DNA from: Mollicutes bacterium Phil14
GTDB taxonomy: Bacteria > Bacillota_I > Bacilli_A > ML615J-28 > CAG-698
Assembly: GCA_001940985.1 (NCBI GenBank)
Contig: MSHB01000026.1
Location: 2,215 to 66,214 of the forward strand
DNA: 64,000 bases
Direction of reading: 5' to 3'
Below are positions 8,773-16,030 of this stretch, one piece after another (position 1 is the first letter of the stretch; each line of letters starts with the position of its first letter). The notes below the pieces were generated by a model. That model made no database searches. It was not told the origin of the DNA and was given only the letters and a program-made list of their open reading frames with translations. Position numbers and translations under genes: made by a program.

Positions 8773-9336
8773 ATGGAAAAATCAGAGTACAAAAAATTAG
8801 TAGAAGAAGTTATAGCATTTGCAAAGGAAAATGCAGGAAAACAATGTATTATAACAGATAGAAATCTAAGAGAATCAGGTACAATCTGTGGTTATAATGA
8901 ATCTATATCTTCATCAATAGATGAACCTATGCTAATAGTAGCTGTATATGCACCTATAGGATGGAATGTAATAGAATCTGATGATATATTACTATACAAA
9001 GTAAAACAAGATACTAGTATAGTACATGATATGAAAAAGTTTTCTTATTTATATGTACCATTAGATAAAATTAGATTAGTAGAACATAAGAGTAAATTAC
9101 CTGAAGTAGCTAGATACCGCAATCTTACTTTAGGCAGATTAACTCAAATTAAAGCTGCTATTGATTACATTCTTACTAGTTCTCCTGATAAAGTAAGAAG
9201 TACTATGGATGAAGAGAAGGAAGACTTATTACGTATTAAATATGCTCTACAAGATGTAGTTAGTATGTGGAGATACAATACTAAAGTATTATTAGAGAAA
9301 ATTAAAAAGGATCAAGAAGATGGCAAGTGGAAGTAG
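8773..9336 (+). CDS. hypothetical protein
   Basis: 187-aa track ORF. Terminal codon is TAG. Confidence 0.6.
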   Translation: MEKSEYKKLVEEVIAFAKENAGKQCIITDRNLRESGTICGYNESISSSIDEPMLIVAVYAPIGWNVIESDDILLYKVKQDTSIVHDMKKFSYLYVPLDKIRLVEHKSKLPEVARYRNLTLGRLTQIKAAIDYILTSSPDKVRSTMDEEKEDLLRIKYALQDVVSMWRYNTKVLLEKIKKDQEDGKWK

Positions 9337-9619
9337 AAAAGCAATTCAAGATTTACTACCATACGCATGGGAAGTAATCTTACGCAAGCATCATTTACTA
9401 TCACACTTTTGTGAAAGTCTTTATCAAACGATGCCTAAAGGATGGAGAAATAAATATTATTACAAAAATATTTTAACTCGTGCTAAGTGTTGGTACAAGC
9501 TACCATTTACTACTATTATCTACAGAATACCTAATCTTATGGATCCTATAAAGTACCCTGAGAAACTTTGGTTAGAAATCAATGATGAAATTAATCAACT
9601 TTTAAATAGAGTAAAATGA
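9320..9619 (+). CDS. hypothetical protein
   Basis: 99-aa track ORF. TGA stop overlaps the next ATG. Confidence 0.5.
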   Translation: MASGSRKAIQDLLPYAWEVILRKHHLLSHFCESLYQTMPKGWRNKYYYKNILTRAKCWYKLPFTTIIYRIPNLMDPIKYPEKLWLEINDEINQLLNRVK

Positions 9620-9867
9620 AACTAGTAGCATCTTTCTTTTATGGTATACTAACAACACTAGTTATACTAATAACAACTATAAGATACACACATTATAGTT
9701 TTATAGATGATTGGACAGCTTCTCAGTTAAAATACGGAGATTATAGTATATATTGGTATTGGATAGTACTAGTTATATATACTATGTGGTTAGTATTTAC
9801 TATTGAATCTATACTTAGTATCTTTAAACATAATAAAGATGAAAATATGTCGAAAACTATGGAATAG
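9616..9867 (+). CDS. small membrane protein
   Basis: 83-aa track ORF with two hydrophobic helices. Terminal TAG, with TAA 6 codons later. Confidence 0.5.
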   Translation: MKLVASFFYGILTTLVILITTIRYTHYSFIDDWTASQLKYGDYSIYWYWIVLVIYTMWLVFTIESILSIFKHNKDENMSKTME

Positions 9868-10006
9868 TTATCTAAGACAAATAGATAAAATCTTTGATTT
9901 TGCAGAGAATAATCCAAAAACAGTATTCGTTATATTCATTATTATATGTATAACTATACTAGTTATTAACATTGAGATTTTAGTACCATATTTATTAAAC
10001 AATTAA
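9803..10006 (+). CDS. small membrane protein (uncertain)
   Basis: 67-aa track ORF that overlaps the previous gene by 65 nt. Confidence 0.3.
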   Translation: MNLYLVSLNIIKMKICRKLWNSYLRQIDKIFDFAENNPKTVFVIFIIICITILVINIEILVPYLLNN

Positions 10007-10020
10007 AACATTTATCAAAA

Positions 10021-10425
10021 ATGAGAAATTATTTTGCATTATGCATTGCAGGTATTATTGCTATGTTTATTATAGCAGTTACCTTTGAGAGTTGTAAGCC
10101 TAAAACAGGCAATAATTCACAAGAACAAAACGATTTACCTACTTTCGAAACGGATACTGTAGAAACAGCTCCGTTAACTGTCGCAGAAGTTTTACAGCGG
10201 CGAGATGATATGAGACTATGTGAATACGAAGATTCTATTTGGTTAACAATGCCAGATGAAATTATTGTACAAATCTGCGTAAATAAAGGCACAGATTTAT
10301 CGCAATATGAAATCGTAGAAACATATTTACAGAATAAAGAATTTTATGATGGATTCGTTAAAGGCTCAAGATACGTAAAAGAGCATAAAGAATCTGATAT
10401 TCCTATAACAGATAGTATAAAATAA
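10021..10425 (+). CDS. putative lipoprotein
   Basis: 134 aa. The N-terminal hydrophobic signal ends ...AVTFESC, which is lipobox-like. Confidence 0.55.
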   Translation: MRNYFALCIAGIIAMFIIAVTFESCKPKTGNNSQEQNDLPTFETDTVETAPLTVAEVLQRRDDMRLCEYEDSIWLTMPDEIIVQICVNKGTDLSQYEIVETYLQNKEFYDGFVKGSRYVKEHKESDIPITDSIK

Positions 10426-10430
10426 CGCCT

Positions 10431-10673
10431 ATGAAACAAAAATTAGCATCCCTATTATGTGCTATATTTGGACATTCATGGGAAACATTTGATACCTTGA
10501 ACGCTAGTAGATCTATTGCAGATCGTACTTATTGTTCTAGATGTGGGATAAAATATCACACTCATATCTTTCGTCGTATAAATAAAGAGAATCAAAAAGA
10601 AGAATTTCATCGTGATCCTCAAGTTAGGTATAGAAACCTAACTGAATATTTTAAGAAAACTTCAAACAAATAA
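10431..10673 (+). CDS. small Cys/His protein
   Basis: 80-aa track ORF with C..H...C..C spacing. Confidence 0.5.
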   Translation: MKQKLASLLCAIFGHSWETFDTLNASRSIADRTYCSRCGIKYHTHIFRRINKENQKEEFHRDPQVRYRNLTEYFKKTSNK

Positions 10674-10677
10674 TAAT

Positions 10678-11088
10678 ATGAAAGTAGTAGTTTTTTGTGT
10701 ACCAAACCACATTTCTGAATCTGATTTAGCAAATGCTATGGAAGAAATGTTATGCAACTTAGATTGTTGCGTAGGATTTCATGTATTAACTGATAATGAT
10801 TCTGTTCCTAAGATTAAAGGAGTAAAATCAAAAGGTAGAACAGCTCTAGAAGAGTTATTCAAAATATGTGGAACTCCAAACACTTATTCTTCAAATAAAG
10901 AATTTCTTGCTAAAGTAAGAGAAGTTCTTCTTAATAGAGGAGGAACAATTAACTTAGAATTAGCTAATATTATAGCTGATCCTAGGTCTTTTACTAAGAG
11001 AGATCAACAATTCTTAAACAATAATAAAGGTAATATGATTATTGATTATTGTAGAGCCTTTATTGCATTATTTGAAGATTTAGTATGA
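10678..11088 (+). CDS. hypothetical protein
   Basis: 136-aa track ORF. Confidence 0.6.
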   Translation: MKVVVFCVPNHISESDLANAMEEMLCNLDCCVGFHVLTDNDSVPKIKGVKSKGRTALEELFKICGTPNTYSSNKEFLAKVREVLLNRGGTINLELANIIADPRSFTKRDQQFLNNNKGNMIIDYCRAFIALFEDLV

Positions 11089-11444
11089 TAAGTAGAAAAC
11101 AACGAGCATTAGCTAAAAGAAATCAAATCCTATTAAAAGAAAGGTTAAATCGTAATCCTTTAAATGGAAAATTACAACTTACCAAAATTAAAATAGGAAT
11201 AAATCCTAGTTCTGAACTAGAGATGCGTAAAGTACTCTATCAAGTAAGACAAAAAGAAATTAGAGAAGCAGAGAAGCTTAGAAAGCTTCAAGCTGAAACT
11301 AAAAGATTTTTAGGACTTGATATATATTATGATAATTTATTAACTTACGATAATTCTCCAAAAGATGACGGATTAAGTTGTAAAGAACGTCGTTTAATGA
11401 AGAAATACGGAGTTAAACGATATCATAACATAAGTATAGCTTAA
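11085..11444 (+). CDS. basic hypothetical protein
   Basis: 119-aa track ORF. Its ATG overlaps the upstream TGA. Confidence 0.55.
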   Translation: MISRKQRALAKRNQILLKERLNRNPLNGKLQLTKIKIGINPSSELEMRKVLYQVRQKEIREAEKLRKLQAETKRFLGLDIYYDNLLTYDNSPKDDGLSCKERRLMKKYGVKRYHNISIA

Positions 11445-11510
11445 ACTTAAAACAAAATAAGCTTTATTCATAAAAATCAATTTTATTAACAATTTAAATT
11501 ATCAAAAATT

Positions 11511-11978
11511 ATGAAACAAATTGCATTAAGAATGGCAGCAGTAGCTCCTTACATGAGATTTATCACAGCAGACGATTCTCTCAAAAATGTAGACGGTTTT
11601 TCAAATCCTAATTCGGAAATCATGGATGAAATCCGAAAAGAAGAAGAAGAACGTGAACGTGAAGAGAAAAAGAATGCTGCTAAAATCCAGTTACAAATCG
11701 ATACTTTCGAACAAGAGCTAGCCGCTATTGAACTTCGTCAAGCTCGTGCAAAAGAGGAAGCTAAAACAAAAGCTTTAAAAGCTCGTACGGACGAAAACGA
11801 AAAATATATGGCCGGCGGAAAAGATACCGAAGACCATAAGAAAGCAATTGCAGCAATTGAGGAAGAATATGCTAATAACGTTCGGAAAGCAGATACCGAA
11901 TTCAACAAAGCATATCAGAATCTCAAGGCTAAGAATCCTATGGGGTATTCCCGTAGCTCTCGTAGTTGCCGTTGGTAA
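11511..11978 (+). CDS. coiled-coil hypothetical protein
   Basis: 155-aa track ORF, E/K/A-rich and visibly less AT-rich. Confidence 0.6.
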   Translation: MKQIALRMAAVAPYMRFITADDSLKNVDGFSNPNSEIMDEIRKEEEEREREEKKNAAKIQLQIDTFEQELAAIELRQARAKEEAKTKALKARTDENEKYMAGGKDTEDHKKAIAAIEEEYANNVRKADTEFNKAYQNLKAKNPMGYSRSSRSCRW

Positions 11979-11998
11979 AATTACGAACTAACTATTTA

Positions 11999-12298
11999 CT
12001 TATCAGTACCTTGTGTCACGATAAGAAAGAATATATTCTAATCATGCATACGGGGATTTTGCAATTACCTATGGAGCTATTCACAGAATATAAACTTTAA
12101 TACTCAGTATATACTTCGGTGTATACTGAGTAGATAAATAGAAAACGTGCCACTGATCATGTGCCTAAAGATCTAAAGGTATTCCTCAGTGTTAGGAATA
12201 TGCTTCTAACTATAAGTACCTTGTGTCAACATAGTTAGACTAGTCTTATGACGATAAACAGAAATCTATCAAGAGTTATATATGAGTACCTCGTGTCT
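11999..12298 (+). repeat. three copies of AGTACCTYGTGTC, two displayed in hairpin loops
   Basis: Copies at 12005-12018, 12215-12228 and 12285-12298. The first two sit in loops of the stems CTTATC/GATAAG (11999-12025) and CTAACTAT/ATAGTTAG (12206-12238). Confidence 0.6.
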
Positions 12299-12492
12299 AA
12301 AGTTCAATTGAGTCCCTTCAAGGTGAGCACTTGCTTTACATATATAAATCAAAAAACAATGTAGTAATTATAAGAAGAGAGTGTCTAGTACCTATAGTAT
12401 TATTATTTACTGTGATGGTAAATAATAGACTATACTCAACTTATAAATACATATTATAAAGTATAGAGTTCTTGATTGAGCTCTATACTACT

Positions 12493-12651
12493 ATGAACAG
12501 AGGAAGACATAAAAGCTTGAAAAAGAAGATTAAGTATATGTCAAATGAACAGATGCTTAAAATGTTAGAAGAAATGAACAATATTAAAACTGATTGTAAA
12601 GAATTTATTGAGCAATGTATTGTTTACTCTAACTATAGTATTAAAAAGTAA
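12493..12651 (+). CDS. hypothetical small protein (52 aa)
   Basis: MNRGRHKSLKKKIKYMSNEQMLKMLEEMNNIKTDCKEFIEQCIVYSNYSIKK. The first 20 nt are identical to the start of 13563..13832. Confidence 0.4.
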   Translation: MNRGRHKSLKKKIKYMSNEQMLKMLEEMNNIKTDCKEFIEQCIVYSNYSIKK

Positions 12652-12957
12652 AACGACTGTTAGGTCTATGAATCACTGTTTGGACACGGGTTTGATTCCC
12701 GTCACCTCCACGAATATGTTTCGATTAAGAGAGAGAGTCTACCGTTTAATGCATTTCATACGACTCAGTGAGATTTCTCACTTAAACTGAATAGAAATGC
12801 ATTATTTTAATCGGGGGTGAATGAGTTTGACAGGCAGAATGTGAAGTAGAATAGGTCGCATGCAGATAACTGGCAACACAAGTTATGTAACGGATTATAC
12901 TCGTATTGCAGCGTAATATGAGAATCCAACGGCTAAGCTAATGTCGTAAAAAGCTGG
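12652..12957 (+). ncRNA. ssrA: circularly permuted (two-piece) tmRNA-like gene
   Basis: The upstream piece ends GGAC-ACGGG-TTTGATT-CCCGT-CACCTCC-A (12682-12710). The downstream piece starts GGGGGTGAATGAGTTTGACAGG (12813-). The two strands form a 7-bp acceptor stem with G3:U70 and discriminator A. Tag-like frame at 12872-12916: GNTSYVTDYTRIAA-TAA. Confidence 0.7.
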
Positions 12958-13030
12958 AGTACTATAGTTGTAATTGGTAAAATATAACACTGATAAAGTT
13001 AAGTTACAGGTTCAAATCCTGTTAGTACTA
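12958..13030 (+). tRNA. tRNA-Ile (anticodon GAU)
   Basis: Acceptor AGTACTA/TAGTACT. T arm ACAGG-TTCAAAT-CCTGT. Anticodon loop CTGATAA, with an A:A mismatch closing the stem. Hand fold, 73 nt. Confidence 0.7.
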
Positions 13031-13060
13031 CTATAAAATTAATCAATAATTTAAAACACT

Positions 13061-13546
13061 ATGGCGGAAGATATAGAAGATAAAACACTTGAAGATCCTG
13101 CATTTTTATCCTTTTTTAATTCAATCATGAGTATTATATGTAATACAAAAGGTAAAGAAAAAGCAATAAGAGTTAAAGAGAAAATAAATTGCTATTTACG
13201 GTCATTACAAGTAGATGGACAAATTAAAGGATTAAAACCTTTAACGATTAAAAAGTATGATGTAATTCGTACCATAATAGGAAAAATGAATCATTATTCA
13301 ATAGTATATAAAGTAGATAATAAAAACAAACTACTCTGGGTAGTTCCAATTACTACATCTTCTACTTACTTATTTAAATTATGGGAAGTTAAGAGTAGAA
13401 TATATACTGGATATTATGGTAATTGTATTTATTTCGTACCTATGAATGGAGATTATAATTTCTGTAATATATTTGACAATAAAATTGATTTTAATAAATA
13501 TATGAAAGAACTAAAAACTTATTACAAAAAAACTTTATATTTATAA
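13061..13546 (+). CDS. hypothetical protein
   Basis: 161-aa track ORF. Confidence 0.6.
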   Translation: MAEDIEDKTLEDPAFLSFFNSIMSIICNTKGKEKAIRVKEKINCYLRSLQVDGQIKGLKPLTIKKYDVIRTIIGKMNHYSIVYKVDNKNKLLWVVPITTSSTYLFKLWEVKSRIYTGYYGNCIYFVPMNGDYNFCNIFDNKIDFNKYMKELKTYYKKTLYL

Positions 13547-13562
13547 GAATAGTTAATTCATT

Positions 13563-13832
13563 ATGAACAGAGGAAGACATAATAGTAAAACTACTCCAGG
13601 TACAATCATAACAAATTTCTATAGGAAATATCCAAGAGCTAAACTTTTATTTATAGAACAAGATTTACTTAAGATATTATATTATCAAAAAAAATGTGGA
13701 AATAATCCTGATCTAGAAATATTTATAAGTGACTATTACAGAGGATATACAAGTGGAGGATTTAACTGGGATGATACTAAAGAAAAATATCCTTATTGGT
13801 TAAAAGTAATGGAAAACTTCAACATATTATAA
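13563..13832 (+). CDS. hypothetical protein
   Basis: 89-aa track ORF with an MNRGRH start shared with 12493..12651. Confidence 0.55.
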   Translation: MNRGRHNSKTTPGTIITNFYRKYPRAKLLFIEQDLLKILYYQKKCGNNPDLEIFISDYYRGYTSGGFNWDDTKEKYPYWLKVMENFNIL

Positions 13833-13847
13833 TAATAAATAAAGAAG

Positions 13848-14036
13848 ATGGAAGAATTATTTGAAATTACTAGTTGGGTTACATTCAAGAAGCCTGGACT
13901 AAAAAAAGAGATCATTGAATTAAGTAAAACATGTGCTGATGCAGATGAGTTTAAATCTAAACTTCAAGATCGCTATCAGGTCAGTTTATCTACTGCCTAT
14001 ATCTTATCAAAAAAGTTTTATAAACCTCAAAATTAG
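13848..14036 (+). CDS. hypothetical protein
   Basis: 62-aa track ORF. Ends TAG, immediately followed by TAA. Confidence 0.5.
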   Translation: MEELFEITSWVTFKKPGLKKEIIELSKTCADADEFKSKLQDRYQVSLSTAYILSKKFYKPQN

Positions 14037-14045
14037 TAAATAATT

Positions 14046-14504
14046 ATGAAATTGTCAGATGGAGTATGGATGGCACAAGGCCCATCTCAAAATGTGATTA
14101 TTAAAGTAGTAGGAGAGCAACCTTTTATTAAAATAGTAAAAGGAATACTTATGAATGATTTCTTTAACTATGGAAGAGTAAAAGAGCTTAGTGAGAATAG
14201 TTTAGAGATCCAACATATTCTTCAAAACCCAAGCTTATATAATTTTGAGCATTTAACAGTATCTCAAGCAGTATTAGACACTATTGGTGTAGGAACTCGC
14301 ACTTTTCAAAAGTGGGAAAATCTTACTGATGAAGATGTAAAAGAATTAGTAGAACAATATCAGAATCATTTGAAGATATATGGTGATACTAATGATGCCG
14401 CATTTATCATTAAGATGTGTAAAGAATTCAGGATTACTACTGGTCAAGCTAGTAATATCCTTGAAAATAAAGTAAAACGAATATTAAGTTTTACTTTCGG
14501 GTAG
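14046..14504 (+). CDS. hypothetical protein
   Basis: 152-aa track ORF. Ends at TAG, with TGA 5 codons later. Confidence 0.6.
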   Translation: MKLSDGVWMAQGPSQNVIIKVVGEQPFIKIVKGILMNDFFNYGRVKELSENSLEIQHILQNPSLYNFEHLTVSQAVLDTIGVGTRTFQKWENLTDEDVKELVEQYQNHLKIYGDTNDAAFIIKMCKEFRITTGQASNILENKVKRILSFTFG

Positions 14505-14508
14505 TATC

Positions 14509-14955
14509 ATGGAAGCAATTGATATTATTAACAGAAGTCTAGAAGAACCTTTTTTATTTCCATTAGATTATATTAATATAATAAATAAGGAATTAATAAC
14601 AGAAGTATATCTGAATGATGAATTTGATTATCATTTATATGGTAAAAATGAGTATTATTTAAAACGTATAGAAGAGTATCAAAAGATTATTAAATGGATG
14701 ACTTCTAAATTATACTTTCCTTTAATTAAAGCTGCAATACAAGGAGATTCTATTGCTATAGCTACTTCTACTACTAAAGTTAGATTAAGAATAGCTACAA
14801 ATATGGTAATGAAAATTCCTGATCACAAAATTAGTAACTTTAAAAGATTAAGTAATTCTATAAAATTAGATACTGTAGAATATATAACTCAAGCATATTG
14901 GAATAGACAAATAGCTTGTTCAGATTATTATTTTAAGTATCAGGTTCCATTCTAG
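14509..14955 (+). CDS. hypothetical protein (may extend to 15018 if TAG is read through)
   Basis: 148-aa track ORF ending at TAG 14953-14955. The frame stays open for 20 more codons to TGA 15016-15018, which overlaps the next ATG as ATGA. Confidence 0.6.
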   Translation: MEAIDIINRSLEEPFLFPLDYINIINKELITEVYLNDEFDYHLYGKNEYYLKRIEEYQKIIKWMTSKLYFPLIKAAIQGDSIAIATSTTKVRLRIATNMVMKIPDHKISNFKRLSNSIKLDTVEYITQAYWNRQIACSDYYFKYQVPF

Positions 14956-15014
14956 AACTATGATAGTAGTTGTTGGTTTAACTACTATCAACAAATAACC
15001 ATTAAATTAGCACT

Positions 15015-15566
15015 ATGAAAGAAGAAATAATTCAATTAGTAGAGCAAGCTAAAAATGGTGATGAAAGATCTTTCAATAAACTTTATACATATTATAAACA
15101 AACTATATGGTATACTATATATAATATAGTAAAGAATGTAGATGTTACAGACGATCTGTTATCTGTTGTATTTACTAAAGCGTACGAAAGATTATCTTCT
15201 TATATACAACACATTTCATTTGAGATGTGGCTAAAGACTATTGCAATAAATAGTTCTATAGATTATATAAGAAGAAACAAACAAGAACAATTAAATAACT
15301 ATATTGACGATGAAGACTGTAAAATACAACTAGATAGTTGTGATAATAGTCCTGAAGATAAACTAGTAATAACTGAAAAGTTAAAATTAGTTCAGGAAGC
15401 TATGACTACTCTTCAAAAGAAATATAGAAATTTAATTGAACTACGATTAGAAGGTAAATCCTATAAGGATATTGCTGAAGAGCTTGCTCTATCAGAATCT
15501 AGAGTAAAATCAGATTTAAATAAAGCAAGACAACAATTAAAGAAAAAGATTTCAAAAATTTACTAA
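15015..15566 (+). CDS. ECF-type sigma-70 family RNA polymerase sigma factor
   Basis: 183 aa. Region-2-like DDLLSVVFTKAYERL...WLKTIAINSSIDYIRR. Region-4 HTH-like YRNLIELRLEGKSYKDIAEELALSESRVKSDLNKARQQLKK. Confidence 0.8.
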   Translation: MKEEIIQLVEQAKNGDERSFNKLYTYYKQTIWYTIYNIVKNVDVTDDLLSVVFTKAYERLSSYIQHISFEMWLKTIAINSSIDYIRRNKQEQLNNYIDDEDCKIQLDSCDNSPEDKLVITEKLKLVQEAMTTLQKKYRNLIELRLEGKSYKDIAEELALSESRVKSDLNKARQQLKKKISKIY

Positions 15567-15579
15567 TATCTAACAAACT

Positions 15580-15942
15580 ATGACACTTATTTATTTGTTG
15601 TCAGCATTTATAGTAATCTTCATTATTTCGCGACTAATGAAGACTAACAAAATAGATGCTTTTACTAGAATGCTAAGCATGCTAGGAATTGGTTTATTGT
15701 TAGGTGCATCATCTAGCTATATAGTTAAGTCTATTAGCACAGATGTTGAGAAAGCTGTAGTAGGTATTACTGCTTCTAGTCCCATGCAATCTTCATTACA
15801 TTCACCTGTTGTAGGGAGTGTATGTAATACAGATGAAATTGCAGGTCAGGACACTATAATAGAAGTTGGCACAGTAGTACCTGAAACAGAAGGAACACCT
15901 TGCAAGTTAACAAACTTATCTGAGATTCAAGATGATAGTTGA
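15580..15942 (+). CDS. membrane protein, possible anti-sigma partner
   Basis: 120 aa with two N-terminal hydrophobic helices. Located immediately downstream of the sigma factor. Confidence 0.45.
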   Translation: MTLIYLLSAFIVIFIISRLMKTNKIDAFTRMLSMLGIGLLLGASSSYIVKSISTDVEKAVVGITASSPMQSSLHSPVVGSVCNTDEIAGQDTIIEVGTVVPETEGTPCKLTNLSEIQDDS

Positions 15943-16030
15943 ACTAGAACTTTATTCTAGTGTAAATTATCAAGTTATTAACCTTTTAAATTGTTAAATT
16001 TTTATTAATACATTAAAATTCATAATCAAT

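Follow-up and report, generated by a model that had tools for sequence, protein, structure and literature searches.

Why would a phage keep several copies of one short sequence, displayed in hairpins, directly in front of its tmRNA gene? The question was raised by a stretch of 64,000 nucleotides (here called the window), in which a first-pass annotation had marked three copies of a 14-nt motif, the first two of them in loops of 15–17 nt closed by unrelated stems. It had read this arrangement as selection on a displayed single-stranded motif, which could be a protein or RNA binding site, a kissing loop, or a hairpin promoter of the kind used by the virion RNA polymerase (RNAP) of phage N4. Analysis of the locus, its genome and its relatives suggests, at about an even chance and on the strength of sequence comparison, that the region is a + strand structured non-coding RNA whose motif copies would be docking sites for one trans-acting reader.

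The motif is confined almost entirely to this locus. The exact 14-mer was located at 12005–12018 and 12215–12228 and a third copy, with two mismatches, at 12285–12298, all on the + strand and all where they had first been reported; the repeat around the 14-mer extends to about 21 nt. When the whole contig was scanned at up to two mismatches, the single other + strand match, also with two mismatches, fell at contig position 83147, far from the locus. The bin's other 25 contigs contain no match at up to one mismatch, and the reverse complement has no match of at least 11 of 14 bases in the contig. A structure-pattern search adds a fourth candidate copy, with its halves swapped, at 12381–12392.

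Genomic context

The source contig measures 100,908 bp at 31% GC, and its bin-mates make up a 1.69-Mb genome of 28% GC. Judged by its sequence, the contig is a crAss-like (Suoliviridae-type) phage. The tmRNA part is the only segment of the region that matches records in phage collections, and all matched records are crAss-like Suoliviridae, including cr53_1, cr4_1, cr113_1, cr114_1 and others. In the leftward block of the window (34243–64000, − strand), the ORFs are unusually short and fragmented under translation table 11, which would fit a possible stop-codon recoding.

As first described, the motif-bearing region lies directly upstream of a tmRNA/tRNA cassette: Rfam matches place a permuted tmRNA at 12652–12916 and a tRNA-Ile at 12958–13030, both on the + strand, with the tmRNA starting about 160 nt past the end of the structured region. 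The neighbouring genes and the tmRNA all run in the + direction, the same as the structured RNA. On its left, the region begins at the stop codon of a 155-codon ORF. A search for relatives with this ORF returned nothing, and an ORF of the same length in cr53_1 is not detectably similar to it (E = 8.8), so that synteny of the upstream gene is not claimed. On the right, a 52-codon ORF (12493–12651, ATG at 12493) separates the region's last hairpin from the tmRNA; it overlaps the tmRNA start called by ARAGORN, has non-coding sequence in its place in the closest relatives (the L129 group), and gave no Pfam or PHROG match. Farther along, 3 kb downstream, is a gene for an ECF-type sigma factor (15015–15566), a position that it also holds in the relatives and the sole match when ten neighbouring ORFs were compared with Pfam and PHROG. 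Scans of the locus for sigma-70 promoters and terminators scored at or below chance.

Predicted structure of the region

The gap of about 514–517 nt between the flanking ORFs folds better than its shuffles (z = −4.8); the single hairpins taken alone, with z about −1, do not. The predicted fold energy is −100.8 kcal/mol for the + strand vs −92.2 kcal/mol for the − strand. With this fold score, and with blocks common to related phage loci, positions 11979–12492 on the + strand form a candidate structured non-coding RNA, which spans from the upstream stop codon to the last strong hairpin, has provisional edges, and may be co-transcribed with the tmRNA.

Its parts, all on the + strand, can be followed from left to right. 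Hairpin H1 (11999–12025) has a 6-bp stem (11999–12004/12020–12025) and a 15-nt loop with copy 1 at 12006–12017. The UUCG-capped hairpin that had been noted between the copies is found at 12101–12132 (12101–12114/12119–12132, 14 positions with one mismatch); in an alignment to the Rfam family RAGATH-20, it replaces the GAAUUAAC-loop hairpin of the relatives. It is followed by a conserved 33-nt block containing ACUGAUCAU (12140–12173), near-identical to the 3' tail of RAGATH-20. Hairpin H2b (12205–12239) has a 9-bp stem (12205–12213/12231–12239) and a 17-nt loop with copy 2 at 12216–12227; measured in this way, the first two copies do sit in loops of 15 and 17 nt, closed by unrelated stems of 6 and 9 bp. 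A 21-nt block next to it (12241–12261) recurs unchanged in the seven IMG/VR relatives of the L129 group.

Copy 3 (12286–12297) is differently placed, in an internal loop of the larger H3 domain (12273–12350) and not in a terminal loop. H3 has an outer stem (12273–12284/12339–12350) and conserved inner blocks at 12301–12315 and 12323–12335, and its architecture of outer stem, motif and inner structure is the same as that of H3 in the relatives. The fourth element at 12381–12392, GUGUC UA GUACC with inner stem GU/AC, has counterparts at the same offset in the L129 group and in a further relative, L164; the single-sequence minimum free energy (MFE) fold pairs these bases differently, so that it counts as a candidate mini-hairpin only. 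Finally, a 12-bp hairpin (12460–12489) closes the region directly before the ATG at 12493.

Related loci

An anchor pattern taken from the 33-nt block retrieved 116 IMG/VR loci, almost all on crAss-sized contigs (50–105 kb). Elements of the motif's form stand at fixed offsets from the anchor in 83 of these 116 loci, as well as in cr53_1 and cr4_1; the absence from relatives that had been named at the outset as a refutation was not seen, and the search of genome and relatives found related elements at matching positions. Specifically, H1 lies 147 nt before the ACTGATCAT anchor in this phage, and copy 1 of the relatives is found at −148 or −138. The relatives' H2 is at −38 and their H3 at +91 to +97 (−148/−38/+97 in the cr4_1 type), the offsets here are −147, +63, +133 and +229, and those of L164 are −31/+67/+147/+243. 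The L164 counterpart of H2b occupies the same offset (+67 vs about +63/+64) with a different closing stem and a different inner stem. This phage shares with its relatives the placement before a permuted tmRNA and on the same strand, and it has the three to four bulged mini-hairpins with covarying stems at conserved offsets from the ACUGAUCAU block.

The element differs from lineage to lineage, with GAAUC UUU GAAUC and GUAUC UUU GUAUC in others and GUACC UU GUGUC here; L366 has four copies, each GUGCC UU GUGCC or GUGUC UU GUACC. Within a genome the version is mostly uniform (cr53_1-like, cr4_1-like, L366 and this phage) and it differs between genomes; L129, L164 and L305 have copies within one RNA that are unlike each other. 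The seven further loci of the L129 group share with this phage the 21-nt block and the inner part of H3. The cr113_1-like group, which has the true RAGATH-20, is without motif elements.

Searches with the exact sequence found only coincidences. The 14-mer has 120 single matches in unrelated IMG/VR contigs, which is chance, and two spaced copies occur at 42 loci in JGI metagenomes, all of them unrelated tandem repeats (a termite-gut repeat and minisatellites), with no close relative of the phage among them. The termite-gut contigs (L256, L259, L269, L286 and others) carry a dispersed or tandem repeat of about 25 nt, GACAAAAGGGGAC then GTACCTTGTGTC, with the same terminal 12-mer as the motif; the likeness is coincidental and does not make them relatives.

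RAGATH-20 (RF03048) and RAGATH-22 (RF03098) are entered in Rfam as candidate structured RNAs with no assigned function. In a local search, RAGATH-20 matches 12080–12173 weakly (34.8 bits, E = 0.0012) and does not reach its gathering threshold of 101.4, while cr113_1 scores 122.7 bits in the same place. The match is carried by the single-stranded 3' tail of the model with CCACUGAUCAUGUGCCUAAGAUC, which 12140–12173 follows nearly base by base apart from one additional A; the model positions of the 5' hairpin (GAAUUAAC loop) and of the nested second hairpin are gapped or unpaired, and the UUCG hairpin stands there instead. RAGATH-22 gave no match up to E = 10 in 11950–12660. No description of this RNA, of RAGATH-20 or of the repeated mini-hairpin module was found in the literature.

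The neighbourhood of the relatives holds further RNA elements. In some of them, a group I intron (Rfam, 74.9 bits) and a reverse-strand endonuclease gene split the acceptor piece of the tmRNA (intron at L126:1633-1884 in cr4_1 and L127:1848-2429 in cr113_1). A RAGATH-9 RNA (130–154 bits) lies slightly upstream in all four RefSeq relatives (L124:867-1039, L125:2043-2210, L126:120-281, L127:693-849), with no match in this window within 9000–16000, and cr114_1 has a hatchet ribozyme (L125:685-813). The relatives also show a strongly covarying 12-bp hairpin from about 75 to 35 nt before the tmRNA start (for example L124:2456-2497), interleaved with a GACCA.../UUUGGUC pairing into a pseudoknot-like arrangement; this hairpin is missing from the window.

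Covariation and the repeated element

In alignment A1, which comprises 65 sequences of the cr53_1 and cr4_1 types with the structure predicted by RNAalifold, 27 of the 55 predicted pairs show at least two standard pair types, and 99.5% of cells hold standard pairs. The prediction includes a long-range helix enclosing H1 and H2, the H2 stem, and the pseudoknot-like hairpin before the tmRNA. When relatives are compared with the motif as anchor, the closing stems of H1, H2, H2b and H3 show compensatory substitutions (AAGCU/AGCUU vs AGAGU/ACUCU vs AAACCUG/CAGGUUU; CUCAUU/AAUGAG vs CACACUA/UAGUGUG), and the exceptions observed in them are G-U wobbles on the + strand. Because the wobbles fall on the + strand, and because in 19 of 23 lineages it is this strand and not the − strand that gives the better fold, the structure is assigned to a + strand RNA.

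The motif itself is probably a mini-hairpin closed by a G-C pair, with A or U as the bulged base, an inner stem of 2 bp and a loop of 5–6 nt, YUU(U)GW. Numbered as G1 W2 N3 N4, loop, N11 N12 C13, the element has positions 3–12 and 4–11 complementary throughout, with identities that vary between lineages: AU/AU in the cr53_1 and cr4_1 types; AC/GU in this phage and in L164 at +67; GU/AC in L366, L357 and the fourth element here; GC/GC in L129, L164, L366 and L305; and GG/CC in L129. What stays constant is the closing pair, the A-or-U bulge and the YUU(U)GW loop, with A-U in place of the closing G-C in L305. Part of this list comes from a scan that required pairing, for which an unfiltered test is a partial correction: among pattern instances collected regardless of pairing, 18 of the 53 unique ones inside the RNA have two Watson-Crick inner pairs, vs 70 of 884 in the DNA that flanks it in the phages (Fisher p = 2.7e-7). 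The H3 element, defined independently through the conserved block downstream of it, is paired in all of five lineages with three different inner stems. Direct-repeat half-sites (GWAYC..GWRUC) for a dimeric DNA binder are rejected, since the dinucleotides that vary are complements of each other (AC/GU, GG/CC) and not copies.

The first-pass proposal of selection on a displayed single-stranded motif is thereby divided. Selection is upheld, as the stems compensate and the element is kept, and the displayed object is probably a mini-hairpin instead of a single strand. A mini-stem of 2–3 bp is thermodynamically marginal and too short for stability alone; single-sequence folds give the mini-stems only partly, and the whole-region MFE pairs copy 1 differently. 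Such marginal stability is typical of partner-stabilised elements.

Hairpins at start codons

The repeated element was not found on start codons of this genome, either by sequence at up to three mismatches or by degenerate pattern. Its structure pattern has 12 matches on the + strand vs 14.8 +/- 3.6 by chance, none on a start codon, and sequence searches of cr53_1, cr4_1, L164 and L366 gave no start-codon copies either, although copies with other stems could escape them. A different hairpin does occur at such sites. The + strand has seven hairpins in which a stem of 4–7 bp carries an AUCAA pentaloop, every one of them within 7.3–22.6 kb; the expectation from shuffles is 4.5 +/- 2.3 over the entire contig strand. 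Five of them (window 7312, 10014, 16025, 17698 and 22576) are at start codons, with the ATG of the downstream gene in the 3' arm, and the other two (11476 and 13042) lie on either side of the cassette of non-coding RNA and tmRNA. Within the related non-coding RNAs, AUCAA(G/A) is again a recurring element.

Competing explanations

If the element is an RNA structure, it might still act without a separate partner. Its copies could be internal architecture, with loops that make tertiary or kissing contacts for folding, within the RNA or with the tmRNA/tRNA transcript. The mini-hairpins do stand at helix tips in a multi-helix RNA with long-range helices, and inspection of the sequences indicates that the recurring AUCAA(G/A) could pair with UUGA-type loops in some lineages. 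This explanation nevertheless appears unlikely: no complementary partner covaries with the loop versions, the CUUGU loop of this phage makes at most 3 bp with AUCAA, the contig lacks a reverse-complement match at the level given above, and the concerted change of all copies in a genome fits a shared external reader better. A further proposal, that the hairpins are ribonuclease processing signals through which a precursor is cut into the non-coding RNA, two tmRNA pieces and the tRNA, is quite improbable. No copy is found at the boundaries of the tmRNA pieces or in the intervening segment, and the three or four sites are distributed across a single conserved folded domain instead of marking junctions, even though they lie directly upstream of a permuted tmRNA, which must be processed, and ribozymes and a group I intron occupy the same neighbourhood in relatives.

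DNA-level functions fare worse. The virion-RNAP promoters of phage N4 are DNA hairpins with a stem of 5–7 bp and a 3-nt loop that a T7-like polymerase recognises, and three of them serve as early promoters. The likeness that made a hairpin promoter tempting consists of short conserved elements in hairpins, three clustered copies as in the N4 early set, and a phage with a presumed virion RNAP; alternatively, host RNAP might use the copies together with the phage ECF sigma factor, encoded 3 kb downstream, or through a Bacteroidetes −7 box, as the cr4_1-type version contains TAnnTTTG. That the copies are promoters of either kind is nonetheless very improbable. The N4 case differs in loop size, strand, context and polymerase family: stems of 6 and 9 bp here carry loops of 15 and 17 nt instead of 3, copy 3 is internal, and the structure with its wobbles belongs to the + strand, which is not the template for rightward genes, where an N4-type hairpin would be on the template strand before early genes. 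No copy precedes any protein gene, and all are embedded in one folded RNA; the N4-type reading of the first-pass annotation is not supported. The TA of a −7 box would fall on the freely covarying stem, which is for instance GC or GG in other lineages; the box fits the cr4_1-type version only, and near-matches elsewhere in cr4_1 look random. Moreover, the virion RNAP of crAss-like phages is built on another fold, with two barrels, and the early transcripts that it makes in phi14:2, the one such phage studied, share no common upstream motif (10.1101/2020.03.07.982082). Least probable of all, with hardly any credence attached to it, is a role of the copies as DNA iterons, at which a DNA-binding protein of the phage would attach to a replication origin or packaging site. 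Three to four repeats in an AT-rich, gene-free stretch with hairpins, in genome-specific versions, would suit such a site, but the turning points of cumulative GC skew fall near 3.5 kb and 34 kb of the window and follow gene orientation, with no switch of strand composition at the locus. The G-U wobbles, being strand-specific, and the covarying stem of 2 bp, with its asymmetric bulge, point to RNA, and the element has no DNA-level symmetry.

Proposed role and comparison with known systems

The available data are thus weighed most favourably for docking sites on a structured RNA, and a protein or RNA binding site is still the best reading of those first offered, in view of the compensating stems and the kept element. 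In this model, transcription of the RNA would accompany or shortly precede that of the phage tmRNA and tRNA, and the RNA's longer helices would present the mini-hairpin outward three to four times per RNA. The copies would then be equivalent docking sites for one trans-acting reader, presumably a phage or host RNA-binding protein that recognises the shape together with the bulge and loop bases. A single reader is suggested because the same shape, in three to four copies, is held out on helices with a free stem and a fixed bulge and loop; that it would be external to the RNA is suggested because all copies per genome change together in several lineages. The RNA might thereby act as a multivalent scaffold, sponge or decoy that adjoins the phage's translation-related RNAs. 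Among the neighbouring ORFs, comparison with Pfam and PHROG gave no candidate for the reader, only the ECF-type sigma factor. Abundant long non-coding RNAs made from long intergenic regions have been described for one crAss-like phage (10.1101/2020.03.07.982082).

A more specific version of this model is possible but doubtful. The RNA would then stand at the hub of a control circuit of RNA and protein: as a sponge or decoy it would titrate, through its three to four operator-like mini-hairpins, an RNA-binding regulator of phage or host origin. Given the adjacent tmRNA/tRNA and the start-codon hairpins nearby, that regulator might be linked to the take-over of translation.

The locus matters beyond this one phage, as few viruses of the human gut are as abundant as the crAss-like phages, and very little of their RNA biology has been described. 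The analysis points to a widely conserved, folded RNA before the tmRNA, built around a repeated and covarying mini-hairpin, that has been catalogued only as fragments (RAGATH-20 and RAGATH-22). Both families come from the same phage group and the same place, and cr113_1 has a true RAGATH-20 between an upstream gene and its tmRNA. RAGATH-22 ends in GCCACUGAUCA, the same block as the RAGATH-20 tail and 12140–12173, and its consensus has one element of mini-hairpin form, GAGCC UU GAGCC, which is not drawn as a hairpin in the model. The RAGATH-20 model, in contrast, is without repeated mini-hairpin modules, and its 5' hairpins are replaced in this phage. With 12–13 nt, the mini-hairpin offers a small, mutable handle for finding the reader of this RNA family, and hence its function.

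Two well-known systems offer the closest parallels. CsrB/RsmZ-type RNAs are protein sponges that display repeated GGA-containing loops for CsrA/RsmA, and the likeness lies in one non-coding RNA with many copies of a short element in hairpin loops; the difference is that the loop here is YUU(U)GW and that the nearby ORFs have no Pfam match to a partner of that kind. The operator hairpins of phages MS2 and PP7, which are read by the phage coat protein, resemble the element in their lower stem, single bulge on the 5' side, short upper stem and small loop, whereas the element of this phage group bulges an A or a U below a loop of 5–6 nt, and its three to four copies stand on a non-coding RNA, with none over a start codon in this genome. 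If the more specific hub model were true, the locus would represent a Csr-like or MS2-operator-like system, as yet without a described protein partner, in phages that abound in the human gut.
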